A stretch of DNA of 64,000 nt from a virus. The DNA lies in IMG/VR virus record IMGVR_UViG_3300035670_000172, positions 4,403 through 68,402 of that record; one strand, given 5' to 3'. The notes under the pieces were generated by a model. That model did no database searches. It saw nothing but the letters and a program-made list of their open reading frames with translations, and was not told the origin of the DNA. The position numbers were made by a program, and so were the translations under genes. Shown piece by piece: positions 15,568 to 40,460 of this stretch. Each line of letters begins with the position of its first letter. Position 1 is the stretch's first letter.

Positions 15568-15885
15568 TTGGGATTGAATAATGAATTTTGGAGAGAAAAC
15601 GCTAAATGTAGAAAGATCGGACCAAGCCTTTTCTTTTCTGAAGATGAAGATGGCAATCTTTCTAGAAAAAACGATCTAGACGCAAAAAAAATGTGTAAAG
15701 ATTGCCCAGTTAAAACTGAGTGTCTTGCTTATGCATTAAATCAGCAAATTAGATTCGGTATATGGGGAGGCTTTACTTCTCGTGAAAGATCATCAATAGC
15801 TAAAAAATTCGGACTTGATGATTACACAGCGATAACCAGTGAGTTAGTAAATAAATCATTACACATGATCAAATATAAAAATTAA
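15568..15885 (+). CDS. whiB: WhiB-family Fe-S transcription factor
   Basis: W-x3-AKC...FF...AKKMCKDCPVKTECL...GIWGGFTSRER. Confidence 0.92.
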   Translation: MGLNNEFWRENAKCRKIGPSLFFSEDEDGNLSRKNDLDAKKMCKDCPVKTECLAYALNQQIRFGIWGGFTSRERSSIAKKFGLDDYTAITSELVNKSLHMIKYKN

Positions 15886-27748: not shown

Positions 27749-28199
27749 TTAATAGACCTAATATAAACCACAAATAATACTAAGGATAAAAACATGAAAT
27801 ATCAAGAGAATGCACACAGAATGGCAAAAGTTAAAATTGATGCAGTCAAGGCATTACAGGATCCTGAAACAGGTAAATTGTTTTATGATATTTGCTTTGA
27901 ATGTGACAAAATGTTAGATGAAGAAGAGTTTGCTTATGGACATGATTGTGAGGGATAGATGGTTCTATTTATAATTTTAGCGCTTGGGATTGGACTAGCC
28001 GTAAACCTTTATGCAAAGAAATCGGTTGATAAATACGATCAGCATAAAGGATACGGTGCCCAATGGGATCAGGAAAGGTATTGGAATAAGTAATGTACCA
28101 AACATTAATAGTGGGTTGGACTATTGTTTATAGCCTTTTCTTTGGCATTGGATTAGCCCTTTATATTTATAATAAAAAGCGGGAAGGTGACGAAAAATA

Positions 28200-28406
28200 A
28201 TGACTAACCAGATAGATGAAATGCAAAAGGAATTGACTCTTCTAGCCTTAGAGATACAAGAAATTGAATTTAAAATGGAAGAGCTATCTAAAGATTACGG
28301 GCAAAATAAAGGAATGCTCGCTTTCTTTGATGAAGTGGCAAATAGGAAAACAAAGAGGTTTTTAGACCTCAAGATTAAGATAGAGAGGATGGGGAGTAAT
28401 GTCTAA
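28200..28406 (+). CDS. hypothetical coiled-coil protein
   Basis: ORF in block. Confidence 0.6.
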   Translation: MTNQIDEMQKELTLLALEIQEIEFKMEELSKDYGQNKGMLAFFDEVANRKTKRFLDLKIKIERMGSNV

Positions 28407-28830
28407 CGAAAACAATGATCATGAAGATGACTTTAATGATTCTTGGATGGAGGTGTTTGCTTTAAGAATAGGCACAGACAATATCCTAGACTTCTTAGAG
28501 AGAATAAAGCCTGAGTTTGATGATATCAATAGGATAGCTGAAATAGAAATGTCTCTGATCTCCCTAAAGCAAATGAAGGGCTATTTTAAAAGAAAGGCGG
28601 ATGAGATTGATAATATCTTAGATAATCATCCAGCCTGGGGAAATAGTATAAAAGCGGGGGATAAGGAAGAATATCCTACAGGGTTCAATATGCCTATAGA
28701 TATGCATTCAGGATATCCTCATACACATAGTACAGCAGAATGGAAACCAGATCTTGATTTGGTAACTAATGAATCAGATATGATTAAAGATAATATCATT
28801 CCATTTAGATTTAAAGATAATAATAACTAA
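28399..28830 (+). CDS. hypothetical protein
   Basis: last ORF of the + strand block. Confidence 0.65.
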   Translation: MSNENNDHEDDFNDSWMEVFALRIGTDNILDFLERIKPEFDDINRIAEIEMSLISLKQMKGYFKRKADEIDNILDNHPAWGNSIKAGDKEEYPTGFNMPIDMHSGYPHTHSTAEWKPDLDLVTNESDMIKDNIIPFRFKDNNN

Positions 28831-29350
28831 TTTGAATTGATAGAAGAAATAGGCAAAAAACTGCTAGCGTGTGAGTGGAGTGAGCTCTAATATATCTCTA
28901 ATATATTCAATAAGACTCCAGTTCATATCATGGTCATATCATGTATATATTAATAATATGTAATTGATATATCACATACAGGCAAAGGAAAAGCTCGGAA
29001 ATAGGCATAAATATAGCTTATTTTCGGGCTTTTTTTTGTCTAAAAACAGGTAATAAAAGCAAAAAAATAAGCAAAAACATAGCTAAATGCTACTAAAACA
29101 GTCAAGAATTGGGTAAAAAAAGCTCAGAATTTGAGAACGCATATATACCCCTATAGTAAATACCTATATATCTTCCTCTAGAGGATATTAGATACATAAA
29201 TATAAATTAACATCCCCCTTTTTATAGGGCTTTATGTAGATTCTAATATCGTTCCATTAATCGTAGAAATTGAGTGTGCATTTCTGGCGGCTTAAACAGT
29301 TTGATATATGCACTAGTAGATGTATTGATTACATCGGTGTAATTCCCCAG

Positions 29351-29393
29351 CTTTGATACAACCTTTGATGCAGGCTTTGATCGCCCCTATGAT
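29351..29393. repeat. 12-bp-period array CTTTGAT x3 + CTATGAT
   Basis: copies at 29351, 29363, 29375, 29387. Confidence 0.6.
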
Positions 29394-29641
29394 CCGCCTA
29401 AAAAAATTTGTCCTCGGTGCAAAGATAAAAGAAAAAGCAAAACAAAATACAATTTAGGAACTAATTGTATAAAGTAACATCATAATTTGAGAATGTATTA
29501 AAAGCAAAAGAAAAATTAAAAGAAAAACGGCGGGTGTACAAATGAATGTTCCACATTGATTTGGAACACCCGCCCGATATAAGAATTTGAGTTGTGATTA
29601 GAAATGTATATTAAATTAGAATAAGGAAGGATACAAGCATA

Positions 29642-29682
29642 GCTGGTGCTCACGGTGCGCCTAGCACTAAGTGAGCACCAGC
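29642..29682 (+). repeat. bulged hairpin element, opposite orientation (F1)
   Basis: GCTGGTGCTCAC-GGTGC-GCCTA-GCACT-AA-GTGAGCACCAGC. Confidence 0.85.
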
Positions 29683-29686
29683 GAAT

Positions 29687-29715
29687 AAAAGCCCCCAGCG
29701 AGTGCTGGGGGCTTT
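29687..29715 (-). terminator. cassette 1 terminator
   Basis: GCCCCCAGC/GCTGGGGGC stem with A-tract on the left. Confidence 0.8.
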
Positions 29716-29735
29716 CGTACTCAATGCGTATGCAA

Positions 29736-30044
29736 TTACTTGCGATTACGCTTTTTCTTTTGCACCTTTAATGCAACAAGCATTTCACCATCCTCTGTCC
29801 AAAAAATTGACACATCACGCTGTGCAATTTCTGCGCATTTGGCGACACGATTACGCCATGTGTTCTTGTGGTTCACATAGTCATCATCGGATGGTGTGCC
29901 CTGTGCCTTGTCAATTCTCACAGCGTCACCATCAATGCTTGCATCAAGCGACAGGATATCGGCAACAATTTCATCATCATGAAACGCCTCACGCCCACGC
30001 TTGACCAAATTGGTCACTTGATTAAGGTTTATCTTTTGGCTCAT
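29736..30044 (-). CDS. cassette 1: KRGR-motif basic protein, paralog A (102 aa)
   Basis: GAGGG RBS, MSQKINLNQVTNLVKRGRE...KKKRNRK. Confidence 0.85.
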   Translation of the reverse strand: MSQKINLNQVTNLVKRGREAFHDDEIVADILSLDASIDGDAVRIDKAQGTPSDDDYVNHKNTWRNRVAKCAEIAQRDVSIFWTEDGEMLVALKVQKKKRNRK

Positions 30045-30092
30045 TGTTATTCCCTCTGTCAAGGTGGTTAGGAATTGTCCTTGACATCAATT

Positions 30093-30195
30093 ACTTTATC
30101 ATATGCGGAGAATATGTGTATTCAATTTAAGAGAGACCTGATCCCCTTATGGCGGTTGTGCAACTTGATGCTAAGCGCACCGTTGCACCACCGCC
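30093..30195 (-). promoter_or_regulatory. cassette 1 promoter + upstream hairpin
   Basis: TGCGCTTAGCA-N43-TTGAAT-N21-TAAAGT. Confidence 0.8.
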
Positions 30196-30250
30196 GACCA
30201 TGTGAGTTGAGAATGTGTATTAAAAACATCTATACCTGGACTCCCAAAAA

Positions 30251-30291
30251 GCTGGCGTTCACGGTGCGACTAGCACCAAGTGAACGCCAGC
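30251..30291 (+). repeat. bulged hairpin element, opposite orientation (F2)
   Basis: GCTGGCGTTCAC-GGTGC-GACTA-GCACC-AA-GTGAACGCCAGC. Confidence 0.85.
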
Positions 30292-30295
30292 AAAC

Positions 30296-30322
30296 AAAAG
30301 CCCCCAGCGGGTGCTGGGGGCT
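30296..30322 (-). terminator. cassette 2 terminator
   Basis: GCCCCCAGC/GCTGGGGGC stem with A-tract. Confidence 0.8.
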
Positions 30323-30343
30323 ATTGCCAACGCTGATTAGGCG

Positions 30344-30652
30344 TTACTTGCGCTTGCGCTTAGCCTTGACAGGCTTGAGTGAGACGATCATCTCGCCTTC
30401 GGTAGTCCAATGAATGGACACTTCACGATCAGCCTGCTCGGCAGACTTCGCAACTCGGTTACGCCAAGTGTTTTTGTGGTTGAGATATTCATCATCGCTC
30501 GGGTCTCCCGTTGCGGTTGGAAAGATGAACGCATCGCCTTCAATGCTCGCATCTAATGCGAGAATATCAGCAACCAACTCGGGGTCGTTATATCCTTCAC
30601 GACCACGCTTGACTAGGTTTGTAACTTCATTCAGGTTTATTTTCATTGCCAT
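30344..30652 (-). CDS. cassette 2: KRGR-motif basic protein, paralog B
   Basis: MAMKINLNEVTNLVKRGREG...KRKRK; AAGGGA RBS. Confidence 0.85.
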   Translation of the reverse strand: MAMKINLNEVTNLVKRGREGYNDPELVADILALDASIEGDAFIFPTATGDPSDDEYLNHKNTWRNRVAKSAEQADREVSIHWTTEGEMIVSLKPVKAKRKRK

Positions 30653-30705
30653 AGGTATATCCCTTATCGGCAGGGGTCTAGGTTTGTTTTCCTACCGACA
30701 AATAC

Positions 30706-30807
30706 ACAATATCATATGCGATGAGAATGTGTATTCAATATAATATGTAACTCATACCCAGCCAGCGGTTGTGCAACTTGATGCTAGGCGCACCGTTGCA
30801 CCACCGC
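30706..30807 (-). promoter_or_regulatory. cassette 2 promoter + upstream hairpin
   Basis: TGCGCCTAGCA-N43-TTGAAT-N21-TATTGT. Confidence 0.8.
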
Positions 30808-30865
30808 CTGCGGGTGAGGATTGAGAATTTGTACTAAACATGTGAATGTATGTAGCTCTATACGA

Positions 30866-30904
30866 CAGGTGTTCACGGTGCGAATAGCACAAAGTGAACA
30901 CCTG
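30866..30904 (+). repeat. bulged hairpin element, opposite orientation (F3)
   Basis: CAGGTGTTCAC-GGTGC-GAATA-GCACA-AA-GTGAACACCTG. Confidence 0.85.
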
Positions 30905-30909
30905 CGAAG

Positions 30910-30938
30910 AAAAGCCCCCATGCCGAAGCATGGGGGCT
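30910..30938 (-). terminator. cassette 3 terminator
   Basis: AGCCCCCATGC/GCATGGGGGCT stem, UUCG loop on minus strand, A-tract. Confidence 0.8.
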
Positions 30939-30988
30939 CTCTCCGTTGCAGGGATAACCCTGCGCCACACTGCCGAAGCGAGTGTAGA

Positions 30989-31297
30989 TTACTTGCGTGT
31001 GCGCTTCTTCTTCACTGGCTTGAGCGAGACAATCATTTGACCGTCTTCAGTCCAGTGAATTGAGCATTCACGGTCTGCCTGTTCTGCAGACTTCGCAACA
31101 CGATTGCGCCAAGTGTTCTTGTGATTGACGAACTCTTCGTCACTTGGATCACCTGTTGCACTCTCGTAAATGAATGCGTCACCGTCAATGGAAGCGTCAA
31201 GCGACAGAATGTCTGCCACTAGTTCAGGGTCATTGTAACCCTCACGCCCACGCTTGACGAGGTTCGTGACCTCATTCAGATTGATTTTCTGTGCCAT
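30989..31297 (-). CDS. cassette 3: KRGR-motif basic protein, paralog C
   Basis: MAQKINLNEVTNLVKRGREG...KKRTRK; GGGAG RBS. Confidence 0.85.
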   Translation of the reverse strand: MAQKINLNEVTNLVKRGREGYNDPELVADILSLDASIDGDAFIYESATGDPSDEEFVNHKNTWRNRVAKSAEQADRECSIHWTEDGQMIVSLKPVKKKRTRK

Positions 31298-31370
31298 TAT
31301 ATTTCTCCCTGTTCATGAACTACCCCACCCAAAGGGTATGGGTGGTATTAGGTGTTCACCAACACTTCAT

Positions 31371-31472
31371 ACAATACCCAATGGTATGAGAATATCTATT
31401 CAATATATGAGATCATTTATCACCAGTTAGCGGTTGTGCAACTTTCTGCTAATCGCACCGTAGCCCCACCGC
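31371..31472 (-). promoter_or_regulatory. cassette 3 promoter + upstream hairpin
   Basis: TGCGATTAGCA-N43-TTGAAT-N21-TATTGT. Confidence 0.8.
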
Positions 31473-31547
31473 CAAATCGTCTTGTGAGCATGTGAATATA
31501 TATTAAATATTGAAATGGTTACGATACGATTGGGTCGGAGTTCAGGC

Positions 31548-31590
31548 AAAAAAAAACCCCCCAAGCCTCGGGGGTGAGGCTTGAGGGGTT
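31548..31590 (-). terminator. cassette 4 terminator
   Basis: CAAGCCTC/GAGGCTTG stem extended by C/G runs, A9 tract. Confidence 0.75.
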
Positions 31591-31606
31591 CGCTGGAGAA
31601 GCGACC

Positions 31607-31870
31607 TTATTGCTTGGTAATGACTGGCACTGCTATCTTACCGTTTTCCAGTGTGTACCATAACACACTGACTTTCTTATCTCCTGCGAGGCTGATAATG
31701 CGAGCACGAACACGGTTTTTGTTGGGTAGTGTGTTCGGCACTGCTCGGCGTGAGGCAACGACATCATAGACACTGCTCACCTCATCTACACACTTGGCAA
31801 GGTAAGCGTCATAGTAACGCTTGCGCCCACGCTTGGCAGTCTGTATTGAGCCTCTCTGTACTTTACGCAT
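31607..31870 (-). CDS. cassette 4: divergent KRGR-family protein (87 aa)
   Basis: AAGGAG RBS then ATG 31870; AKRGRKRYYD...NKNRVRARI...KVSVLW aligns with paralogs A-C. Confidence 0.75.
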   Translation of the reverse strand: MRKVQRGSIQTAKRGRKRYYDAYLAKCVDEVSSVYDVVASRRAVPNTLPNKNRVRARIISLAGDKKVSVLWYTLENGKIAVPVITKQ

Positions 31871-31917
31871 TTGCTTTCTCCTTGTCAGCGGGGTTAGGGT
31901 AATCGCTGACAGACATA

Positions 31918-32018
31918 ACCTTACAATATGGTATGAGAATATGTATTCAATGTGAACGCACCATGACACCCTGTCAACTGGTGTGCAATTTGTTGCTAGC
32001 CGCATCATCGCCCTCCAG
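31918..32018 (-). promoter_or_regulatory. cassette 4 promoter + upstream hairpin
   Basis: TGCGGCTAGCA-N43-TTGAAT-N21-TAAGGT. Confidence 0.8.
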
Positions 32019-32084
32019 CGAAATGTGATGAGAATTTTGTATGTATTAAATATCCAGAGATGTTCAGCTCAGTTCGGTGGGAGT

Positions 32085-32116
32085 TTCCCCCTCGCACCCG
32101 TAGGCACGAGGGGGAA
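32085..32116 (-). terminator. cassette 5 terminator-like hairpin
   Basis: TTCCCCCTCG/CGAGGGGGAA; weak U-tail. Confidence 0.6.
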
Positions 32117-32119
32117 GTT

Positions 32120-32305
32120 TCACTTGGATAGGTTGAGAGCGTGGCTGTGGACACGCCTGATTTGCTTGCGGACAATACCCCGCAGGCTCTCCCTGCAATT
32201 AGGGCAACACTTGGTCAATATGTATGTCTCCGCCTGAACAGGGACACTGGATGTTCTGCCATTGGCATAAATACCATTGACCATACGGATATGTGTGGGG
32301 TTCAT
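32120..32305 (-). CDS. cassette 5 gene 2: small Cys-containing protein
   Basis: ATGA overlap with upstream gene; CCPNC. Confidence 0.6.
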   Translation of the reverse strand: MNPTHIRMVNGIYANGRTSSVPVQAETYILTKCCPNCRESLRGIVRKQIRRVHSHALNLSK

Positions 32306-32523
32306 TCTGCACCGCCGAACATGCTATCCCAGCACTTGTCGTGGAAGCCGTTGATGAGTTGCTCACGCTGGGCTGGGGTAAGGGTAGGGAAGCAATTCTG
32401 AATGAGTTCGCCTGCCCACATGCGGGTCTTGCCGATCTCCCAGTCGTTGAAGTCTATGGTGATCTCACCATAACACTTGCACTCGGGGCAGAGCGGGGTT
32501 GGAACGGTTATCATAGTTTTCAC
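32302..32523 (-). CDS. cassette 5 gene 1: Zn-binding hypothetical protein
   Basis: CPEC...IQNCFPTLTPAQREQLINGFHDKCWD; GGAG RBS before GTG 32523 (alternative ATG 32514). Confidence 0.75.
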   Translation of the reverse strand: MKTMITVPTPLCPECKCYGEITIDFNDWEIGKTRMWAGELIQNCFPTLTPAQREQLINGFHDKCWDSMFGGAE

Positions 32524-32567
32524 TGCAATCTCCAATCTGTGCCAACGGGATTGTTGGCAACGACATA

Positions 32568-32670
32568 ACCTTAGCGTATGGCTTGAGAATGTGTATTCAA
32601 TGTTTGACCTGGCTGTATCCCTTTCCGCTGTCGTTCAATTTATTGCTAGACGCATCATCGCACGCCAGCG
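32568..32670 (-). promoter_or_regulatory. cassette 5 promoter + upstream hairpin
   Basis: TGCGTCTAGCA-N43-TTGAAT-N21-TAAGGT. Confidence 0.8.
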
Positions 32671-32735
32671 AAATGCGATGAGATCGTGAATGTGTATTAA
32701 ACATTGTGACAATCTCATCGCAGTACGCTTGGGGT

Positions 32736-32763
32736 TCTCCCCCCGCCCGAAGGCGGGGGGAGA
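32736..32763 (-). terminator. cassette 6 terminator-like hairpin
   Basis: TCTCCCCCCGCC-CGAA-GGCGGGGGGAGA (C-UUCG-G on minus strand). Confidence 0.7.
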
Positions 32764-32775
32764 GGGGATTGATTG

Positions 32776-33039
32776 TCATTGTGTGACGAAGGAAAGGTAA
32801 TCCATTTCCTCAATTGAACCCTGAACATCTGTGAACAGTTGTTCAATGTCGCTCAACTTGTCCTGAACTTCACCAATGAACTCTTGGCGCAGGGCAATCT
32901 TCATGTCAACCACAATGCTGAGCATCTGTGCGCTCATATCCATTGGGCTGATCAAGCCAGCTTCTAGTTGCCTAGCAACTTTGACTGCAGCCTCATGAGC
33001 AAGTGTGAGTGCCCTTGGGTGATCGGGTAAGTGTGTCAT
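32776..33039 (-). CDS. cassette 6: helical hypothetical protein
   Basis: AAGGAG RBS, 87 aa. Confidence 0.8.
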   Translation of the reverse strand: MTHLPDHPRALTLAHEAAVKVARQLEAGLISPMDMSAQMLSIVVDMKIALRQEFIGEVQDKLSDIEQLFTDVQGSIEEMDYLSFVTQ

Positions 33040-33085
33040 TGCTATCTCCTTGTCAAGGGGGTATGGAATGTCCTTGACAACTTCT

Positions 33086-33186
33086 ACATTACCCGATGAG
33101 GTGAGAATGTGTATTCAATCTGTAATGTCCTTCCCTTCCATTGAACTGGTGTGCAACTTGTTGCTAGACGCATCGCCGCCCTCCAG
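33086..33186 (-). promoter_or_regulatory. cassette 6 promoter + upstream hairpin
   Basis: TGCGTCTAGCA-N43-TTGAAT-N21-TAATGT. Confidence 0.8.
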
Positions 33187-33260
33187 CGATTGTAATGAGA
33201 AAATGTGAATGTATTAAAAATTGAAACTGTCTAAGCACAATCGGATCGGAGTTCAGGCAC

Positions 33261-33293
33261 AAAAAAATCCCCCAAGCCCGAAGGCTTGGGGGA
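33261..33293 (-). terminator. cassette 7 terminator
   Basis: TCCCCCAAGCC-CGAA-GGCTTGGGGGA plus A7. Confidence 0.85.
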
Positions 33294-33312
33294 CTGGGGG
33301 ACTGACTATGAG

Positions 33313-33492
33313 TTATTGCTGAGCGTTGCGCTCGGCAATTGTTTTCTCATACGAGCGAAGCAACATTGCCAAGCCTTGGATTGCTTGAGTGTTGCCCGTC
33401 TGGGTTGCTCGGTTGAGCGCACCCGACACAACGAGGAATTGTTCCTCAAGTGTCATTGGCTTTCGTGGAGCAATATCGTTCTGCTTTTTCAT
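33313..33492 (-). CDS. cassette 7: hypothetical protein (59 aa, absent from ORF track)
   Basis: AAGGAG RBS; MKKQNDIAPRKPMTLEEQFLVVSGALNRATQTGNTQAIQGLAMLLRSYEKTIAERNAQQ. Confidence 0.8.
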   Translation of the reverse strand: MKKQNDIAPRKPMTLEEQFLVVSGALNRATQTGNTQAIQGLAMLLRSYEKTIAERNAQQ

Positions 33493-33536
33493 TGCTTCTC
33501 CTTGTCGGTGGGGTTAGGAGTATCACCGACACTCAT

Positions 33537-33637
33537 ACCTTACCCAATGGCTTGAGAATGTGTATTCAATGTAAGAGTGTCATCATATGCAGTAAACTGG
33601 TGTGCAACTTACTGCTATTCGCAACGCCGCACTCCAG
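33537..33637 (-). promoter_or_regulatory. cassette 7 promoter + upstream hairpin
   Basis: TGCGAATAGCA-N43-TTGAAT-N21-TAAGGT. Confidence 0.8.
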
Positions 33638-33650
33638 CTCTTCTGTAATT

Positions 33651-33680
33651 AAAAACCCCCAAGCCCGAAGGCTTGGGGGT
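33651..33680 (-). terminator. cassette 8 terminator
   Basis: CCCCCAAGCC-CGAA-GGCTTGGGGG plus A5. Confidence 0.85.
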
Positions 33681-33700
33681 CTGTGTGAATGAATTGTCAA

Positions 33701-33913
33701 TCACTTGTTCTTTTTCAACTCAAACAATTCCATTCGCAACGCTTGAACACTCTTTACTGCATTGTCATAGTCGTTCTCTATCCTGCTGGTGACATCATAG
33801 AGTGCGGTGAATGCTTGCCTGTGATCATCGTTGTTCATGTCTAGTAAGATGTAGATTGCATCTAGTGCGGGTCCAAAGTAACTTCTCCACACTCCGTCAT
33901 GATCCTTGTACAT
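33701..33913 (-). CDS. cassette 8: hypothetical protein (70 aa)
   Basis: AAGGAG RBS, ATG 33913 (MYKDHDGVW...). Confidence 0.8.
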   Translation of the reverse strand: MYKDHDGVWRSYFGPALDAIYILLDMNNDDHRQAFTALYDVTSRIENDYDNAVKSVQALRMELFELKKNK

Positions 33914-33957
33914 TGCCTCTCCTTGTCTGTGCCAGCGGGTTGCTTGGCACATCTCTT

Positions 33958-34059
33958 ACATTATCCAATCGGGTGTGAATGTGTATTCAAGGTAAGAACC
34001 TCATGCCCTCCTTATTGCTGGTGTACAAGTTATTGCTATTCGCATCCTCGCACCCCAGC
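33958..34059 (-). promoter_or_regulatory. cassette 8 promoter + upstream hairpin
   Basis: TGCGAATAGCA-N43-TTGAAT-N21-TAATGT. Confidence 0.8.
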
Positions 34060-34126
34060 GCTTATGCCATGAGACTCAGAATGTGTATTAAACATCAAGA
34101 GAATCATGGCACAAGCAGATTGGGGT

Positions 34127-34154
34127 TCTCCCCCCACCCGAAGGTGAGGGGAGA
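34127..34154 (-). terminator. cassette 9 terminator-like hairpin
   Basis: TCTCCCCCCACC-CGAA-GGTGAGGGGAGA. Confidence 0.65.
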
Positions 34155-34159
34155 TCGTA

Positions 34160-34429
34160 TCAGTCGTAGATACGGTACCTGTCTTGTTGCTTCTCCAAGA
34201 CATGAGCCTGACGATACTTGTCAAACATCTCGCACCAAATCTTTGCGAGTGTCAATGACCCTGCAACGAAGCGCTCTACTTCATGTTGCATCTTGCCAGT
34301 CTCATCAGTGACATAGCACCAAGCAATATAGTTTGGTGTGTCGTCATGAGCCTTGTAGATCTCGTACATATGCCAATATGTCCAAGCGTACTCGGCTCTA
34401 CCGATACTTACCCACTTCATATCACTCAT
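34160..34429 (-). CDS. cassette 9: hypothetical protein
   Basis: GAAAGGA RBS; SLTLAKIWCE motif. Confidence 0.8.
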   Translation of the reverse strand: MSDMKWVSIGRAEYAWTYWHMYEIYKAHDDTPNYIAWCYVTDETGKMQHEVERFVAGSLTLAKIWCEMFDKYRQAHVLEKQQDRYRIYD

Positions 34430-34474
34430 GGGATATTCCTTTCTATCGGGGCTAGGTTTGTTCCGACAAGAGAT

Positions 34475-34578
34475 ACCTTAGCAAGTGAGACCCAAATGTG
34501 TATTCAATCTGAGAGCTCCTTCTACGCCTTGCTGCTGGTGTACAACTTGTTGCTAATCGCACCGTTGCCCACCACCGC
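34475..34578 (-). promoter_or_regulatory. cassette 9 promoter + upstream hairpin
   Basis: TGCGATTAGCA-N43-TTGAAT-N21-TAAGGT. Confidence 0.8.
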
Positions 34579-34661
34579 AGGCATGTCGTTCTTTTGGTGA
34601 GTGAAGTAAATATGTATTCAACTTAAGAATGATCTGCCTGCGAATGGGTGGGTGTTGGCAC

Positions 34662-34709
34662 AAAAAAAGAACCCCGAACGCTTCAGGGGGTGAGAAGCGT
34701 TCGGGGTTC
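34662..34709 (-). terminator. cassette 10 terminator
   Basis: GAACCCCGAACGCTTC/GAAGCGTTCGGGGTTC plus A7. Confidence 0.85.
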
Positions 34710-34712
34710 GGG

Positions 34713-34799
34713 TCAGAATGCTAGACGAAGTGCGCCTGACAAGATACTGAATATCAAGCAAGCGTACACTATGCCAGCGCCAATTTGTCCGAGTGTCAT
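34713..34799 (-). CDS. cassette 10 gene 2: 28-aa single-TM peptide
   Basis: ATGA overlap; MTLGQIGAGIVYACLIFSILSGALRLAF, ending at the terminator. Confidence 0.6.
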   Translation of the reverse strand: MTLGQIGAGIVYACLIFSILSGALRLAF

Positions 34800-35023
34800 T
34801 GGGATACCTTGCGATACTCAAGCACCTCGTAGTGATTGCCTGCGGGGTGGAATTGGGCACTTACGGTAATCTCAACTACACCGCCGTCAAGTTTGAACCT
34901 GAATACTTGGTATTCCCAAGTCTCATCAACCTCAACGGGGATAGTGTTGGATAGGATAAGGTTCAGTGCACGCTTGCCGAGCAAGGCACGCTGAACGGTT
35001 TCGCTTGTGTCTATGGTGGACAT
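34796..35023 (-). CDS. cassette 10 gene 1: hypothetical protein
   Basis: GAAAGGGA RBS, ATG 35023 (MSTIDTSET...). Confidence 0.8.
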   Translation of the reverse strand: MSTIDTSETVQRALLGKRALNLILSNTIPVEVDETWEYQVFRFKLDGGVVEITVSAQFHPAGNHYEVLEYRKVSQ

Positions 35024-35064
35024 AGTTCCCTTTCTGTCTCGGCGGGATTGCCTTGACAACCATT

Positions 35065-35166
35065 ACCTTACCAAGTGAGTACCGAATGTGTATTCAATGT
35101 CCGATCACCCTTGCCCCCTGTTGAGTGGTGTTCCACTTTCTGCTACTCGCATCGTAGACCAACACC
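35065..35166 (-). promoter_or_regulatory. cassette 10 promoter + upstream hairpin
   Basis: TGCGAGTAGCA-N43-TTGAAT-N21-TAAGGT. Confidence 0.8.
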
Positions 35167-35272
35167 GAAACGGGATTTGTGAATTGCGCTTTGCGCTTTG
35201 TGTCGTGTCTTGTTTGTTGTGAATGTACTCAATGAGTGCAAGTGCCTGGTGCATATGGGTGGGAGGAAGCAC

Positions 35273-35306
35273 AAAAAAAAGGGGGAGGAGCCGAAGCCCC
35301 TCCCCC
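35273..35306 (-). terminator. cassette 11 terminator
   Basis: GGGGGAGG/CCTCCCCC stem plus A8. Confidence 0.8.
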
Positions 35307-35327
35307 ACTTGATTGCCCTGACGGGTC

Positions 35328-35585
35328 TTACATCAAGTCCTTTGCCATCTGGCTGACAGCCTCTGCACGAGCCTTGAGGTTCACCAACAAGATTGTCGCC
35401 TCGTTGATTGCAGTGGTCAAGTCTTGCTTGATGGTCTCCATGCGGAGTACATCTGCGATCTGGTCAAGACCGATTGCATTGGACATGTCAGTGCCTTCGC
35501 TCATGGCAACTTCAGCGACCCGTGTGAGCCAACTGAAGCACTGAACGGATGTAGCCTGCACTGGTTCTGCATGCTTCTTACTCAT
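35328..35585 (-). CDS. cassette 11: helical hypothetical protein
   Basis: AGGAG RBS, ATG 35585 (MSKKHAEPV...). Confidence 0.8.
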   Translation of the reverse strand: MSKKHAEPVQATSVQCFSWLTRVAEVAMSEGTDMSNAIGLDQIADVLRMETIKQDLTTAINEATILLVNLKARAEAVSQMAKDLM

Positions 35586-35630
35586 GATTGTTCTCCTGTC
35601 AGGATGTCTGGGCATCTCGTTGACAAATAC

Positions 35631-35732
35631 ACTGTATCAAATCACTTGCGAATGTGTATTCAATTCACTTGCATCCTCTTCCCCATTTTGCGGGTGTACA
35701 ACTCTGTGCTAGACGCACCGTTGCACGCCCGC
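35631..35732 (-). promoter_or_regulatory. cassette 11 promoter + upstream hairpin
   Basis: TGCGTCTAGCA-N43-TTGAAT-N21-TACAGT. Confidence 0.8.
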
Positions 35733-35861
35733 ATTGACCCTCCCCGACACAGGGTCCGCAGAACACAAAAAAACATAAAGTAACACTCATAAAATATATA
35801 CTCAAATTTTGGATGGGATGGTGCAGTGCGGGTATAGGAGTATAAAAGTTTGGGGGAGAAT

Positions 35862-35952
35862 AAAAAAGACCGCTAGAGATGCACATGCCCCTGGGGTTGA
35901 GCCCAGAGGCATCTGCACCTATAACGGTCCTAAGGTTAGCTTTCGCTGCCTT
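35862..35952 (-). ncRNA. candidate ~90-nt small RNA
   Basis: TGTG-TATACT extended -10 at 35957-35966, GAAA-loop hairpin, long hairpin ending in a U6 tract. Confidence 0.55.
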
Positions 35953-36210
35953 TATCAGTATACACAGATACTAATTTGCGGGGTAGTAATAATGATTGGG
36001 TGTATTACCGAGAGTTCCGATAGAAGCCATGACCTTTGAAGTTGATTCCTGGCGGGGAGAATATTTGTTTAATTGGAAGGTCGCACTCAGGACAAGTATC
36101 TCTTACTTGCTCTTCAGACATCTTTCTTCTTTCTTCGTACAGATGCTGGTTAGGACAACGGTAGTGATAGATAGCCATATGTTATATAGTATACATGTTA
36201 TACTTGGTAA

Positions 36211-36612
36211 ATGTACGAATATAATGTTAAGAAGGTAACAAAAGTAGTAGATGGTGACACGATTGATGTGGACATTGATCTGGGTTTCAACATCTCCTAC
36301 ACACAGCGTGTTCGCTTGGCTGGAATTGACACCCCCGAGTCACGCACCAAAGACCTCCGAGAGAAGGCTCTGGGGCTTGAGGTTAAAAATAAAGTCAAGA
36401 ATGCGATAGATAATGCCAAAACAATTATTATAAAAACAGAGCTCCCCGATAGCACCGAGAAATACGGGCGCATTCTGGGCTGGGTGTATCTGGATAACTC
36501 TCTCAAGTCATTAAACGAACAACTCATTGACGAGGGCTATGCTTGGGGATACATGGGCGCAACCAAAGTCAAAGACTTTGACGCACTGCTCGCAAAGCGG
36601 GTGGGTAAATGA
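36211..36612 (+). CDS. thermonuclease (SNase-family)
   Basis: VVDGDTIDV, RVRLAGIDTPE, EKYGRILG. Confidence 0.9.
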   Translation: MYEYNVKKVTKVVDGDTIDVDIDLGFNISYTQRVRLAGIDTPESRTKDLREKALGLEVKNKVKNAIDNAKTIIIKTELPDSTEKYGRILGWVYLDNSLKSLNEQLIDEGYAWGYMGATKVKDFDALLAKRVGK

Positions 36613-36854
36613 GAGTATGGATTGACCAAGACCTATGTACTGGAGATGGTCTGTGCGCCGAGATAGCCCCCGATGTTTTCACCATGCTGGAGGATGGATT
36701 AGCCTATGTCCAAGAGAACGGCAAGATTTACTCCAAGCTCCGAGGAAACCCCGAAGGCGCAGAAGGCATGGCATCTTTCGCTGACGCAAGACTTGATGAT
36801 GTGATTGAAGCGGCAACCGAATGCCCTGGCGAATGCATTTTCATTGAGCCATAA
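36609..36854 (+). CDS. ferredoxin (actinobacterial Fer4_13/15-type)
   Basis: VWIDQDLCTGDGLCAEIAPDVF...ECPGECI. Confidence 0.9.
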   Translation: MRVWIDQDLCTGDGLCAEIAPDVFTMLEDGLAYVQENGKIYSKLRGNPEGAEGMASFADARLDDVIEAATECPGECIFIEP

Positions 36855-36924
36855 AGACCACAACAGCCACAAGCAAGCAAACTTTTTTTAGTTAGTATTT
36901 ACCCGTTTTTCGCCACCGCTAAAA

Positions 36925-37221
36925 TTATTCCAAATCTTTAAATTCGGGGAAGTACTTCTCAATAGCTTTATCCCGACTGATTCCATAATTGACGCACCAT
37001 TCCTGGAGGAGACCGTTGGCAATATCCCGCCATCTATCTCGTTCCGCCTCTAACAGCTTCATCTCGTTAAAAGTATCCATATCCATTTTGAGCATTTTAC
37101 TCTTATCCATAAAATCAACCTCCGATCCGCAATCTCCAGTTCCTTCAAAGGAACACTGTGACTTCCAAGGTGTCATGTCGTAAACATCACACCACTTTAC
37201 GCCGCATGGTAGTACGCCCAT
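36925..37221 (-). CDS. hypothetical protein
   Basis: coupled to upstream gene. Confidence 0.55.
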   Translation of the reverse strand: MGVLPCGVKWCDVYDMTPWKSQCSFEGTGDCGSEVDFMDKSKMLKMDMDTFNEMKLLEAERDRWRDIANGLLQEWCVNYGISRDKAIEKYFPEFKDLE

Positions 37222-37778
37222 TACAGAACCTTGAAGTCTACATTAAGTATAAACCTAAATGGATTCTTAACAGGGTTTGAAGCTGCGTGAATCTGACTGC
37301 CATCAAAAATTACAGCACGACCTTTTTTGGGATAAACCGTGTCGGTTAGCTCTTTTTTATTGTTAAAAAAATAAGTTGGTCCATCTGTATCATTGATATA
37401 GTAAAGAAGCACCTTGTGTTCAACTGCAGTGCCATCATCGTACTGAAGATCAATGTGAGGAGTCTGATGCTCGTAATTCATCATTGGGGGATATGGGGAT
37501 GTTACATTTACCTTAGCCCGCAAAAGTCTGATGTTGCCGACCACACCTGCCAGATTTGCAACAAGCTTACTAATGGCGGGAAGATGTTTGGATGCAATAT
37601 CTGATTCAGATTCATAAAGGTGATGTGACATCTGCATTGGTGCATGATTCCATTTCCTATCTTCGTGGTAGATATGGCTGCGGTAGAAACGATAAGTAAC
37701 CTGAGGGTCAGTGAAGTATCCATATAGATACCCCTGATCCTCTATAGATATGTAATTATCTATGATTTGCATTTGCAA
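37221..37778 (-). CDS. 2OG-Fe(II) oxygenase
   Basis: PHID, LYYINDTDGPT, PKKGRAVIFDG-x2-HA, R-x3-N. Confidence 0.85.
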   Translation of the reverse strand: MQMQIIDNYISIEDQGYLYGYFTDPQVTYRFYRSHIYHEDRKWNHAPMQMSHHLYESESDIASKHLPAISKLVANLAGVVGNIRLLRAKVNVTSPYPPMMNYEHQTPHIDLQYDDGTAVEHKVLLYYINDTDGPTYFFNNKKELTDTVYPKKGRAVIFDGSQIHAASNPVKNPFRFILNVDFKVL

Positions 37779-38434
37779 TTTTTACAACCTTTTTTACATC
37801 CATCGTTACTATTAACATGAATTAGCGTTCCATACGGAACTGGAGCCCCCATTGTTCCCTTAAAGAAGCTATTTATAGAGATTGCAACTCGTGTTACATC
37901 TTCAGTGACTGTTGGAACGAAGTGAAGAAGCTCTGACGGAAATAAGATGATATCCCCAGGCTTAGCCATCATAGCAAATGTGTCTGAATTGTAATAATTT
38001 TCTTCATTTGAATTAAAACTCCATCTTTTTACACCTGGTCTATAAAACATTGTCCCGTCTAGCTCTTGCAAGGAAACATATACAACTCCAGAAACAATAC
38101 TGTTTTGATGAGCATGAGCAGTGTGATAATCACCTTTATCCAACCTTGTCACCCAAGAAGAGGTTAGTGCAAGACCTACATCATCCGATGTGTTATATAT
38201 ATTTTTAAAATAATTATCAAGATTTACTTGTATTCTATATTTAAGATCAGAAAGAATTTCGTTTTCAAGAATCTCTCTGTCATTAGTAACCCAAACGCCA
38301 TCAAACCTATCAGCACCGTGAGCTTGCTCAAAAAGAAATTTTATTTCTTCCTGTGTGAAATCTCTGCCTATTGATGATTTATAAATAGGCGTTGCAAATG
38401 CGTTATATATTGTTGCTTCCATGTTTTGTTCCAT
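37760..38434 (-). CDS. 2OG-Fe(II) oxygenase (TIGR02466/2OG-FeII_Oxy_5-like)
   Basis: SSW...HAHQNSIVSGVVY...GDIILFPSELLH...RVAISIN. Confidence 0.85.
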   Translation of the reverse strand: MEQNMEATIYNAFATPIYKSSIGRDFTQEEIKFLFEQAHGADRFDGVWVTNDREILENEILSDLKYRIQVNLDNYFKNIYNTSDDVGLALTSSWVTRLDKGDYHTAHAHQNSIVSGVVYVSLQELDGTMFYRPGVKRWSFNSNEENYYNSDTFAMMAKPGDIILFPSELLHFVPTVTEDVTRVAISINSFFKGTMGAPVPYGTLIHVNSNDGCKKGCKNCKCKS

Positions 38435-38452
38435 ATTTCCTCCGTTTTATAG

Positions 38453-38525
38453 CTGGCGAGGTAGGGCTTGAACCTACGACCCAGGGATTAACAGTCCCTT
38501 GCTCTGCCAACTGAGCTACTCGCCA
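38453..38525 (-). tRNA. tRNA-Asn(GUU)
   Basis: cloverleaf; AGGGA-CTGTTAA-TCCCT anticodon arm, GGTTCAAGCCC T-arm. Confidence 0.92.
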
Positions 38526-38530
38526 TTGTA

Positions 38531-38611
38531 TTACTTAATCAACAGTATAGCAATTGTAATTGCATGCAGTGTGAAATACACTGCATGTGTAATCTTATCT
38601 TGTTTTGACAT
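38531..38611 (-). CDS. 26-aa hydrophobic peptide between tRNAs
   Basis: GGAGG RBS; MSKQDKITHAVYFTLHAITIAILLIK. Confidence 0.5.
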   Translation of the reverse strand: MSKQDKITHAVYFTLHAITIAILLIK

Positions 38612-38623
38612 ATTTCCTCCTAG

Positions 38624-38695
38624 AGCCCCCTCTCGGACTTGAACCGAGGACCGCTTCATTACAAGTGAAGTGCTCTACCACTGAGCTAAAGGGGC
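38624..38695 (-). tRNA. tRNA-Thr(UGU)
   Basis: cloverleaf; CTTCA-CTTGTAA-TGAAG anticodon arm, GGTTCAAGTCC T-arm. Confidence 0.92.
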
Positions 38696-38699
38696 GGTG

Positions 38700-39341
38700 T
38701 TAATCTTCTTTAGAGACAACATCATAATCATACCTATCATCATCCGATGTTGTCCATTTATCTCCATCTTCCACATCCCAAACTTTTGTATTGATCAATC
38801 TTTCAATCAACCTTTCGTCTTTCTTTGTTGTGTAGGAAGGATCCCATAGACGAACTCTGTTGTTTGGCTGAATGGCAAAGTTACCATCTTTTCTATTTAT
38901 CACATGACCACACTTGTGTTGACCTGGATTAACTGAATATCCTGTATTTACAATATTTGAATCAGGGGTATGCCAGTCTAGTGTAAACATGTATTTACCA
39001 TCAACTTTATTCTTACGCCTGTCAAGGTAGGTCATAGACATACCACGCATGTGTTCAAAAGTTGTTACTGTGATATGAGAAGAAAAGCTGTTCCACATAA
39101 CCAAGTCATGCAAATCAACCTCTGGACTGTCTGGTGAAGAACAGAAAGCGTTTATTGGAGCCCTCCACCACACACCGCCATCTTCCATCAAAAAATGAAA
39201 TACAGGTGCTCTATCTGGAATTGATGCTACTCCAAAAATTACGCATGGAAATTTAACATCATGGCTATCAACCTGATTGCGTAAAAAGTTACCACGAACA
39301 TAACACTCAATTGGCGGGATGTTTGCATTTAATTCTGGCAT
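38700..39341 (-). CDS. conserved phage hypothetical protein
   Basis: LNANIPPIECYVR, GKYMFTLDW, HKCGH, QPNNR motifs. Confidence 0.75.
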   Translation of the reverse strand: MPELNANIPPIECYVRGNFLRNQVDSHDVKFPCVIFGVASIPDRAPVFHFLMEDGGVWWRAPINAFCSSPDSPEVDLHDLVMWNSFSSHITVTTFEHMRGMSMTYLDRRKNKVDGKYMFTLDWHTPDSNIVNTGYSVNPGQHKCGHVINRKDGNFAIQPNNRVRLWDPSYTTKKDERLIERLINTKVWDVEDGDKWTTSDDDRYDYDVVSKED

Positions 39342-39364
39342 GTTGTTTATTCCTTTATAAAAAA

Positions 39365-39964
39365 TTAAACATATTTAATTGCACTAGAAAGTGCATATTT
39401 AACAATACCATAATTAGCAGTAGCAATATCTGCTGCAACAAGTGTATAGTCGTATAATATATTATCAATCCTTCTTCTGTTATACGCTGAATGATACTCA
39501 ATCAAATAAATATCTGGCTTAATAACCATGTTTTCTAGTATTTCAATCTCAGCACCTTCGGTATCAATTTTCACAATATCTGCTTTTGGCAGCAAACTTG
39601 CTGCTACAACAGAAACATCCTCACCCTCTTCAACCTGCTCAGCGCCATGTTGAAAACTGCATTCACCAACATTGTGAGCTCCATAATACATTCTTCTTTG
39701 CTCTGTCTTTGAACCTATTGCAAGATTCATAACCATAATGTTATCAAGATCTTTTGTATTTGATTTTAAAAACTCAAAATTTTTCTTAATTGGTTCATAT
39801 GAATAAATTTTTGAATTCTTCCATCTCTGATTAGCCCATAAACAAAATCCACCAACATTACCACCGATGTCTAGAATTACTGGATTTTCTTTTTCATATG
39901 GAATGTCGTACTCCCCTTTGAATATTTTTTCAATATGGGAAATCATGTTGTTTGGAGCTTTCAT
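39365..39964 (-). CDS. FkbM-family methyltransferase
   Basis: LDIGGNVG, YEP, VKIDTEGAE, IEYH. Confidence 0.85.
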   Translation of the reverse strand: MKAPNNMISHIEKIFKGEYDIPYEKENPVILDIGGNVGGFCLWANQRWKNSKIYSYEPIKKNFEFLKSNTKDLDNIMVMNLAIGSKTEQRRMYYGAHNVGECSFQHGAEQVEEGEDVSVVAASLLPKADIVKIDTEGAEIEILENMVIKPDIYLIEYHSAYNRRRIDNILYDYTLVAADIATANYGIVKYALSSAIKYV

Positions 39965-39965
39965 G

Positions 39966-40460
39966 TTATATTTTTCTTTTTACTTGTTTTTTAACAATCT
40001 TCTTTGCCGCTTTCTTTTTAGCTCTTGGTTTTGGCATATCGGGCGTGGGCATCCACTTACCCATTGATTCAGCAAGAGCATCAATAATTCTTTCACATTC
40101 ATAATCAATTAGCGATGTCACCATCTTGTTAACAGTGTTGTCCTTATTGGAGCTATCAGGGTCTGGCTTTAACACTTCACTCACAGCTTCTGAAATTATA
40201 GCCATGTGACAATGAAGGAGTTCATGAACAATTGTTGCACGAAGATCTTCTGGCTTATCTTTTCTAAAATCCTTGTGTAAATACATTTTTGCAAGATGTT
40301 GCCCGTGAATAACTTCCGTTTCACCGAGCGCATCTGGATGACATGGCTTTGTCTGCATCATAATTACCCAATGAGATAGCCCCATCATGTTCTTAAGTTT
40401 ATTTACATAGCGAACAACCCACGGGTCCATTGCTTCTATTTTTACAGGTGCCTTAGCCAT
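39966..40460 (-). CDS. zincin-like HEXXH protein
   Basis: TIVHELLHCH. Confidence 0.65.
   Translation of the reverse strand: MAKAPVKIEAMDPWVVRYVNKLKNMMGLSHWVIMMQTKPCHPDALGETEVIHGQHLAKMYLHKDFRKDKPEDLRATIVHELLHCHMAIISEAVSEVLKPDPDSSNKDNTVNKMVTSLIDYECERIIDALAESMGKWMPTPDMPKPRAKKKAAKKIVKKQVKRKI

Follow-up and report, generated by a model that had tools for sequence, protein, structure and literature searches.

A 64-kb stretch of phage DNA (hereafter the window), which forms part of the 68.4-kb IMG/VR virus record IMGVR_UViG_3300035670_000172 (CheckV completeness, 66%), carries a 6.1-kb array of small genes set into repeated copies of one regulatory scaffold. An initial annotation of the window had described 11 consecutive minus-strand units on such a scaffold, and this was borne out. 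A repeat search recovered a 99-nucleotide (nt) direct repeat in 11 copies spaced 421–665 nt apart, and the 11 minus-strand units (30087–35737), anchored on TGAATACA, could be aligned without gaps across 113 nt, with 37 of the 113 columns invariant. In each unit a 43-nt bulged hairpin is followed by a 27-nt spacer, the box ATTGAATACACATTC, 13 nt, and the hexamer TAnnGT. Past each TAnnGT lie a leader hairpin and a ribosome-binding site, then one small gene or a pair of them, and finally a GC-rich hairpin. The units are self-contained, as had been claimed, each having its own promoter-like element, leader, ribosome-binding site, gene and terminator.

The composite unit measures ~250 nt, and about half of the array is regulatory scaffold, the coding share being 49%. 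The 11 cassettes (c1–c11) hold 13 open reading frames (ORFs). Two cassettes had been credited with two genes, and two have them: c7 contains ORFs of 73 and 61 amino acids (aa), and c2 contains a 75-aa ORF and an overlapping 28-aa hydrophobic micro-ORF. The four distal cassettes (c8–c11) encode paralogs of a basic protein, “KRGR.”

A covariance model built from the window's 11 units (R1) scored those copies at 97–110 bits (E 1e-20 to 1e-23). When positions 28000–40000 were compared with Rfam using cmscan at E up to 1, two tRNAs were returned above threshold and the hairpins and scaffolds were unmatched above it; sub-threshold rows inside the array (Pseudomon-1, 31.9 bits against a cut-off of 50; MIR1886) were rejected as chance. 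A search of the literature outside subscription journals found the scaffold undescribed. Both results agree with the earlier remark that no description of such an upstream hairpin at fixed distance was known.

Signals within and around the scaffold

Allowing up to three mismatches, the box matched 20 times in the window, compared with 5.55 ± 2.43 matches in shuffles, and 18 of the 20 fell within 29602–35664, all on the minus strand. The box contains a dyad, GAAT-N4-ATTC (inside ATTGAATACACATTC), centred near −31. In the hexamer TAnnGT the T, A, G and T are invariant, and conservation of a G two bases before it (−14) reaches at least 90%; together, as (T)GnTAnnGT, they resemble an extended −10 promoter. 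Across the lineage of relatives described below, the order TTGA(A/G)TACAC, ~13 nt, and TAnnGT with G at −14 is conserved. Because the box is confined to the array and stands 21 nt from the −10, a distance too great for a −35, it is probably the site of a single regulator. In our reading, the element would be an extended −10 promoter with an upstream box that binds one array-specific factor.

The leader hairpins start 6–8 nt past the −10 hexamer and end just before ribosome-binding sites of the AAGGAG type. Their energy z-scores are −1.8 or lower in 8 of 11 cassettes and weak in c1, c3 and c7. Starts inside the array find their best indirect support in the leader stem, which begins exactly at the expected +1. 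C-rich loops (CCTAACCCC-like; for example at 33505–33525, 33060–33080 and 31885–31905) cap the leader hairpins and often include CUCC or UUCC. Such loops could pair with the Shine-Dalgarno sequence that follows and may form a translational control element.

A GC-rich hairpin, often with a UUCG loop, stands behind every gene. Terminator-like sites numbered 15, compared with 6.7 ± 2.8 in shuffles, and a stem with a T-run was found in 8 of 11 cassettes; in c3, c6 and c7 the GC-rich hairpin is of the C-UUCG-G type without a T-run. The 43-nt scaffold hairpin also has no T-run and is therefore not a terminator.

Upstream of scaffold 1 lies a better-spaced promoter-like element (P0), which was missed by a scan for the E. 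coli consensus and is common to all six lineages with sequence at that position. P0 would transcribe hairpin 1. Directly upstream of P0, an ORF-free unit (35862–35966, minus strand) consists of TGTGTATACT (extended −10-like), ~90 nt, a long hairpin and T6, and looks like a small RNA gene. Further upstream, at 36211–36854, plus-strand thermonuclease-like and small ferredoxin-like ORFs, judged from their translations only, lie inside the minus-strand gene block that borders the array. The opposite end of the array is alike in seven of seven lineages (the window, L014, L016, L018, L020, L021 and L022): the last KRGR gene, its terminator, a reversed hairpin, ~27 nt, a degenerate box and a long hairpin with a T-run. 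The 3′ arm of this 48-nt array-end hairpin matches the 3′ arm of the scaffold hairpin. It may be a final terminator, or it may be a small RNA from a twelfth, gene-less scaffold.

Two further candidate elements were considered and rejected. A second, degenerate box between terminator and hairpin had been proposed as part of the scaffold; it is present only in the window's own subclade, and as a universal part it failed in the distant relatives. As a promoter for the hairpin this second box lacks a −10-like hexamer, and it is absent from L020, L022 and some copies of L014. For L020, L022 and some of L014, ~8 nt separate the terminator T-run from the hairpin, which excludes a promoter between the two. 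A mini-ORF ending at the TGA of the box could start from an in-frame ATG or GTG in 7 of the window's 11 spacers. Over the full set of 62 copies, however, only 21 have an in-frame ATG, and the distant clade has almost none (a single two-codon case, in L022); the mini-ORF is not a conserved feature.

The array had also been called GC-rich, and its GC content is indeed 48.4% compared with 35.6% for the rest of the window. In all eight loci examined, arrays of 43–54% GC are flanked by sequence of 32–39%. GC content at third codon positions is 54% in the cargo compared with 29% in other window genes, and the non-coding parts are equally GC-rich. On these comparisons the GC island is a maintained property of the module and not a recent import. 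Its cause is a matter of speculation, either host-like codon usage for the genes expressed first or avoidance of AT-directed silencing. That a block of ~50% GC has been kept in a 33%-GC phage across the lineage raises a testable question.

Table 1. Positions in the window of the array's features, all on the minus strand. L010 is one of the related contigs described in the next section; letters denote protein families.
Feature	Position	Remarks
P0: TTGAGT, 17 nt (TGT before hexamer), TACTTT	35777–35805	Upstream of scaffold 1; read from sequence
Scaffold 1 (hairpin, 27-nt spacer, box, 13 nt, TACAGT)	35625–35737	R1 103.4 bits
Cargo c1, 85 aa, family C	35328–35585	First cassette in 4 genomes
c1 terminator, 11-bp stem, UUCG loop, T8	35281–35306	Terminator scan
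Scaffold 2	35059–35171	R1 97.1 bits
Cargo c2, 75 aa	34796–35023	Look-alike in L010 s2a judged by eye
c2b, 28-aa hydrophobic micro-ORF overlapping c2 stop codon (ATGA)	34713–34799	Similar 30-aa ORF behind L010 s2a
c2 terminator	34672–34688	Terminator scan
Scaffold 3	34469–34581	R1 99.1 bits
Cargo c3, 89 aa, family D	34160–34429	
GC-rich UUCG hairpin after c3, without T-run	34127–34154	Read from sequence
Scaffold 4	33952–34064	R1 104.7 bits
Cargo c4, 70 aa	33701–33913	Entire cassette absent from L010
c4 terminator	33651–33679	Read from sequence
Scaffold 5	33531–33643	R1 108.2 bits
Cargo c5, 59 aa, family E	33313–33492	
c5 terminator	33266–33295	Terminator scan
Scaffold 6	33080–33192	R1 107.4 bits
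Cargo c6, 87 aa, family F	32776–33039	
GC-rich UUCG hairpin after c6, without T-run	32736–32763	Read from sequence
Scaffold 7	32562–32674	R1 97.4 bits
Cargo c7a, 73 aa, Cys-rich, family B	32302–32523	Weak match to phrog_20898
Cargo c7b, 61 aa	32120–32305	Relatives have an unrelated 78–81-aa gene (family G) in its place
GC-rich hairpin after c7b, without T-run	32085–32116	Read from sequence
Scaffold 8	31912–32024	R1 106.4 bits
Cargo c8, 87 aa, distant KRGR-family member	31607–31870	28% identity with c9
c8 terminator	31554–31591	Terminator scan
Scaffold 9	31365–31477	R1 104 bits
Cargo c9, 102-aa KRGR paralog	30989–31297	
c9 terminator, then reversed hairpin copy	30866–30940	
Scaffold 10	30700–30812	R1 109.6 bits
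Cargo c10, KRGR paralog	30344–30652	
c10 terminator, then reversed hairpin (30251–30296), then T5	30251–30322	
Scaffold 11	30087–30199	R1 109.5 bits
Cargo c11, KRGR paralog	29736–30044	
c11 terminator, then reversed hairpin (29642–29687)	29642–29715	
Array end: degenerate box (29602–29616), then 48-nt hairpin with T-run (29527–29574)	29527–29616	Conserved in 7 lineages

Relatives of the array and the exchange of cassettes

Neither megablast with the array nor tblastn with a KRGR paralog found a match among 50,697 phage records. A pattern made of the hairpin core and the box brought up three further IMG/VR contigs, with 7–8 full copies each by R1, and a KRGR profile brought up seven further contigs (43–66% identity), each with 10–12 R1 matches directly upstream of KRGR genes. 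A covariance-model search of related contigs had been called for in the initial annotation; in ours, R1 found 7–12 scaffold copies per contig in ~10 IMG/VR contigs (G001–G003, L016–L022), which belong to one lineage and are linear fragments without end repeats. The hairpin loop, the spacer length, the box and the −10 are kept even where KRGR proteins are only 43–50% identical. With a looser pattern, multi-copy loci remained confined to the same set of contigs. A pattern scan of bacterial genomes gave at least 120 single matches in unrelated taxa and no multi-copy locus among the matches listed, and we took these matches as chance. R1 had no match at E up to 1 in Streptomyces phage Jay2Jay, which is among the cultured phages that match the capsid best. 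Because multi-copy loci occur only in this set, and because neither Jay2Jay nor Rfam gave a match, the scaffold is the mark of a small, uncultured phage lineage.

Other genes of the window bear on the identity of this lineage. The window encodes a terminase, portal, protease, major capsid protein, ribonucleotide reductase, 2-oxoglutarate-Fe(II) oxygenases and a tryptophan halogenase, together with phage tRNAs for Arg, Asn and Thr. The major capsid protein shares 55% identity with those of Streptomyces BE-cluster phages such as Jay2Jay (Stanwilliamsviridae; siphoviruses), and a WhiB-family gene (~15589–15795, plus strand) scored 80 bits, above the Pfam cut-off. The Stanwilliamsviridae-like capsid and the WhiB gene make an actinobacterial host likely. 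The WhiB gene is the best host clue, and its product is a candidate for regulating promoters that have an AT-rich box upstream. The DNA runs that contain the stretch are labelled as subsurface, freshwater, lake and aquatic metagenomes; no RNA run was listed among them, and two runs labelled RNA-Seq (X19 and X20) were rated as probably DNA.

We mapped the arrays by protein family, with x standing for cargo without a relative in the set; c2, which the automatic ORF picker had missed, was placed by eye. The window reads C-c2-D-c4-E-F-B(+c7b)-A′-A-A-A. L010 reads C-c2-D-E-F-B+G (cut by the contig end), L016 reads C-x-D-E-B+G-A′-A-A-A, and L018 reads C-x-D-E-F-B+G-A′-A-A. The distant loci L020 (x-I-J-K-B-x-A-A-A), L022 (J-I-K-M-x-x-x-N-A-A-A), L021 (H-x-M-N-x-x-x-A-A-A) and L014 (x-x-x-H-x-A-A) have few families in common and another order, with the KRGR genes always last. 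Among close relatives the maps indicate insertion, deletion and replacement rather than free shuffling.

The clearest case is the c4 cassette (421 nt), which is absent from L010. The lone L010 scaffold at this position is a chimera: in a three-way alignment its hairpin and initial spacer bases resemble window scaffold 4, and the remainder resembles window scaffold 5. This places the crossover within the hairpin-to-box spacer, ~10 nt past the hairpin, at a site of ordinary sequence homology, and it reads as the footprint of homologous exchange between scaffolds. Elsewhere, c7b has been replaced in relatives by an unrelated gene. When the window is compared with L010, the bodies of c3 and c6 cannot be aligned as DNA, although the scaffolds of these cassettes share 83% and 93% identity; syntenic scaffolds of the window and L010 are 73–96% identical overall. 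Protein divergence between the window and L010 is mosaic (identities: C, 100%; B, 64%; E, 58%; D, 39%; F, 38%), and family F of the window is closer to that of L018 (64%) than to that of L010. Some breakpoints fall outside the scaffolds, at ORF starts or within ORFs.

These comparisons bear on what had been predicted for the array. Relatives keep the scaffold and carry different cargo, as predicted. Of the proposed swapping between scaffolds, the gain and loss of cassettes, the replacement of cargo and a change of order in the distant clade could be seen, but free shuffling among close relatives could not. Relatives with identical order and cargo were not encountered; cargo sets differ between loci.

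The prediction had further compared the array's logic with that of an integron. In such a system the hairpins would, by analogy to attC, be folded single-strand sites for a structure-specific recombinase. Strand-specific folding with a conserved bulge, the presence of one hairpin per cassette, nearly all in the same orientation, and the variation of cargo among relatives would all suit such a system. However, the mapped crossover lies outside the hairpin, as in ordinary homologous exchange, the other breakpoints lie at or inside ORFs, the 43-nt hairpin is shorter than attC sites, and every cassette has its own promoter-like element and terminator. The absence of an integrase, already noted for the window, was confirmed for the 68-kb record (~66% complete), in which no match to the tyrosine recombinase domain Phage_integrase (PF00589) was found while controls were positive. 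We consider an integron-like mechanism very unlikely.

Metagenome assemblers can join repeats into chimeras, and some of the contig joints may have arisen in this way. Joints that would fit cargo replacement were weak and were not counted: in X19 record 3, positions 31611–31875 are replaced by 284 letters (88% likeness, possible misassembly), and in X7 record 16, positions 31478–32298 are replaced by 337 letters. Contigs X4, X7, X9 and X19 were all placed at 88% likeness, some with low depth or short sides. For the array as a whole, an assembly artefact or a chance similarity has next to no probability, given that the same architecture with different cargo recurs in ~10 independently assembled contigs, that contigs of runs from other studies (at least 95% alike) cover much of the window's array, and that the model E-values are ~1e-20.

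The cargo itself resembles little that is known. None of 10 cargo proteins scored above the Pfam cut-off, and 9 of the 10 had no match in PHROGs, the single weak match having no assigned function. The seven non-paralogous cargo genes show no similarity to one another at E 1e-3, as had been thought. Ratios of non-synonymous to synonymous substitution rates (dN/dS) of 0–0.58 indicate that these are real genes under purifying selection; the c1 protein is identical in L010 despite a dS of 0.31. The three KRGR paralogs at 29736–31297 share 72–85% identity as protein and 67–73% as DNA, with synonymous sites saturated. They are old duplicates, kept apart and not homogenised by gene conversion despite the near-identical scaffolds that flank them. 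An AlphaFold2 model of KRGR had a mean predicted local distance difference test score of 80.1. Foldseek found no PDB structure for it at E 0.001 or better, and the best VIA-align hit (RepE, Z 5.5, root-mean-square deviation 4.6 over 74 residues) was below that tool's meaningful level; the ESM Atlas returned only unnamed clusters for c9 and c1. Immediate-early timing, and a host-takeover or anti-defence role, are things we can only infer for the cargo. More than 40 small genes under selection are candidates for early host manipulation.

Possible modes of action

The upstream hairpin has a 5-nt GNNTA loop and an AA bulge on its 3′ side. It folds in 11 of 11 window copies (energy z-scores −0.03 to −3.8, weak for some), and in these copies alone 7 of its 17 pairs covary. 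Across 65 copies from eight loci, 14 of the 17 pairs had changes on both sides, a count as high as which was seen in none of 500 shuffles, and 87.9% of cells were paired, compared with 25–47% when the partners were slid. The non-Watson-Crick cells of the 62 forward copies comprised 64 G.T and 4 A.C. Since the GC skew of the array is near zero, mutation bias is an unlikely cause of the G.T excess. The fold kept is that of the gene-sense strand; this suggests RNA, or that strand of the DNA in single-stranded form. Lineage-wide, the hairpin tip GC[GNNTA]GC and the spacer length of 26–27 nt are kept, but the spacer sequence is not. With 65 copies, 14 covarying pairs, the GNNTA loop and the AA bulge, the hairpin is a well-supported new structured motif that could join RNA family libraries.

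We favour the reading, at a probability of roughly 0.6, that the locus is a hyperplastic array of autonomous promoter-terminator cassettes, similar to the promoter-early stem-loop (PeSL) cassettes of T4-type phages, in uncultured aquatic phages that probably infect actinobacteria. Host sigma-A RNA polymerase would start ~7 nt after TAnnGT; Sigma70_r4 had no match within the record. The box would probably bind one regulator that switches all cassettes together, and the leader hairpin, with a free Shine-Dalgarno sequence behind it, would probably protect the 5′ end of the mRNA. The sequence comparisons show the repeated scaffolds to be the sites at which relatives exchanged, gained and lost cassettes by homologous recombination, like the PeSL motifs. 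The upstream hairpin would most likely be an RNA signal in transcripts from P0 or in transcripts that read through the preceding terminator, where it could act as an insulator, a processing site or a protein-recognised termination or antitermination site.

Several observations weigh against this picture. TTGAAT stands 21 nt from TAnnGT (20 in the distant clade) and no −35 lies at 16–18 nt, so that the box looks like a regulator site rather than a −35 and the strength of the promoter without a factor is doubtful. The promoter call concerns a short motif, and an E. coli-type scan picked only c10 and c11 of the 11, by way of a different hexamer. Promoter starts and terminators are predicted from sequence, and the actinobacterial host is deduced from the capsid and WhiB. 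Close relatives are largely collinear. Hairpin copies within a genome share descent, so the covarying cells and G.T counts are not independent events, and the hairpin alignment (A3) was itself fitted to the model. Finally, an RNA-acting hairpin explains neither the constant distance from hairpin to box nor the reversed hairpins that stand ~27 nt before a box-like element; both fit a role at the level of DNA better.

The badly spaced TTGAAT and the conserved, promoter-like P0, which would fire into hairpin 1 in six lineages, are what one would expect of a single operon read from P0 only, with the 113-nt scaffold as an intergenic RNA module without internal promoters. Hairpin and linear box would then work like the nut and put sites of lambda and HK022 or the RNase III sites of T7, for antitermination or for cutting into monocistronic mRNAs whose 5′ ends are the leader hairpins. 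A sense-strand fold with G.U intermediates and almost no A.C, a GNNUA loop and AA bulge conserved as in protein-bound RNA hairpins, and a constant hairpin-to-box spacing like that of composite RNA sites all accord with it. Set against these, the invariant TAnnGT with G at −14 and a 5′-terminal stem 6–8 nt further on have the look of a promoter and its start, and the similarity of the box to the −35 region of P0 suggests a promoter element. A hairpin located behind each terminator cannot help polymerase past that terminator, and eight canonical terminators would be wasteful in an 11-gene operon. We therefore regard a single operon as unlikely.

The constancy of the 26–27 nt between hairpin and box, across a spacer whose sequence varies freely, could alternatively mean that the two act as DNA, through cruciform or hairpin extrusion or through binding of the duplex, and form a platform for a phage regulator that times all cassettes. 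The arrangement would resemble that of Streptomyces phage phiC31, in which repressor sites lie near repeated early promoters. Candidates for the regulator would be the KRGR protein, the c1 product or WhiB. The box is an array-specific dyad, the reversed hairpins keep the same distance to a box-like element, so that orientation seems irrelevant, and KRGR genes and scaffold occur together in nine of nine loci retrieved with the KRGR profile. Recognition of duplex DNA, however, would not account for the compensatory changes seen where the stem varies, and the 64:4 ratio of G.T to A.C indicates that the fold of one strand is kept. This explanation, too, we hold to be doubtful.

For the role of the hairpin our odds are divided, because the constant box distance and the reversed copies speak against a pure RNA role. 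An RNA signal on read-through or P0 transcripts is an even bet; a DNA-level platform for a regulator is a less probable though serious candidate, and a recombination site is improbable, as is any other function.

A broader proposal, which we think rather improbable, is that hairpin, 27-nt spacer and box are together a new cis-element, in which a protein reads the sense-strand hairpin at a fixed distance from a factor-dependent promoter and senses or stops polymerase arriving from upstream, which would set how active the next promoter is. The element would be a relay or an insulator, the multi-copy KRGR protein would be its reader, and the GC island would serve first expression, either by host-like codons before the phage tRNAs act or by escape from silencing of AT-rich DNA. 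A bolder variant would make the hairpins the folded single-strand recombination sites of an integrase-free, integron-like system.

Comparison with known systems

In the host-takeover module of Bacillus phage SPO1, small early genes are grouped into numerous short transcription units, and every unit has a promoter and a terminator. The array resembles it in this layout. The SPO1 module lies in the terminal redundancy of its genome, and the contigs with the array are linear fragments that lack end repeats. In contrast, no homology to SPO1 was detected for the cargo (10 proteins compared with PHROGs, one weak match), and the early promoters of SPO1 are, to our knowledge, canonical sigma-A promoters without a common upstream hairpin.

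The upstream hairpin itself recalls lambda nut (boxA-boxB), HK022 put and the T7 early RNase III sites, which are conserved hairpins of early transcripts with a defined loop or bulge, read by a protein or by polymerase; the T7 site is repeated between genes. The array hairpin differs in standing after a terminator and before a promoter-like element, in being repeated 11–14 times, and in having no match in Rfam.

In integrons, the attC site is an imperfect palindrome of ~55–140 nt with R and L boxes and is recombined at a fixed point; the cassettes are promoterless and read from a common promoter, and arrays without an integrase are known. The array has a 43-nt hairpin with the mapped crossover outside it, cassettes with their own −10-like element and terminator, and no PF00589 match in a record that is ~66% complete. 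By the features tested, it is not an integron.

Among actinophages, cluster O mycobacteriophages have 17-bp palindromic repeats in intergenic regions, and one gene indel is flanked by direct copies (PMC4351075). Both systems thus place a repeated dyad motif in intergenic regions. The cluster O repeats, as given there, are invariant 7-bp inverted repeats scattered over the genome with no fixed link to a −10, hairpin, leader or terminator, whereas the box described here stays within a single array, inside a 113-nt module.

The initial annotation had named the PeSL cassettes of T4-type phages as the closest precedent, and we agree (PMC2839356). PeSLs combine a sigma-70-like early promoter with a stem-loop that serves as terminator or attenuator; the repeated motifs cluster in hyperplastic regions upstream of ORFans, and recombination between them produces indels (Arbiol et al. 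2010, PMC2839356; Comeau et al. 2014, PMC4122927). Recombination of neighbouring PeSL motifs also yields mini-circles. As so described, they share three properties with the array. Both consist of repeated composites of a terminator with a promoter, or in the array a promoter-like element, that lie in a hyperplastic region directly upstream of small uncharacterised genes. In both, a terminator-type stem-loop is joined to that element; in the array, each gene has a GC-rich stem-loop behind it that is predicted to terminate, and 8 of the 11 include a T-run. Indels and replacements end in the PeSL motifs, and in the array the c4 crossover lies inside a scaffold and scaffolds are kept beside replaced bodies.

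There are also differences from this description. PeSLs belong to T4-like myoviruses, and the array belongs to a lineage with a Streptomyces BE-cluster-like capsid and WhiB. The predicted promoter of the array has an extended −10, and its dyad box stands at the wrong spacing for a −35. The array unit has the additional covarying 43-nt hairpin, with its conserved loop and bulge, 26–27 nt from the box, and it includes a leader hairpin, so that it measures ~250 nt as opposed to a short intergenic motif. The whole array is, moreover, a GC-rich island with its own codon usage. Our search of the literature outside subscription journals met PeSL-type cassettes only in work on T4-type phages and in papers citing it. 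The array works like PeSLs and is not a member of that set, the two having been compared by description and not by sequence.

Viewed in practical terms, the array could serve low-GC actinobacteria as a compact, natural platform for expression that combines promoter, 5′ stabiliser, ribosome-binding site and terminator. The new elements are the covarying hairpin at a fixed distance, the leader hairpin, the mis-spaced dyad box and the compositional island, all in an unrelated lineage; the PeSL-type device is known. In this lineage, which probably infects actinobacteria, the array represents the same evolutionary device as PeSLs and is far more regular in form.

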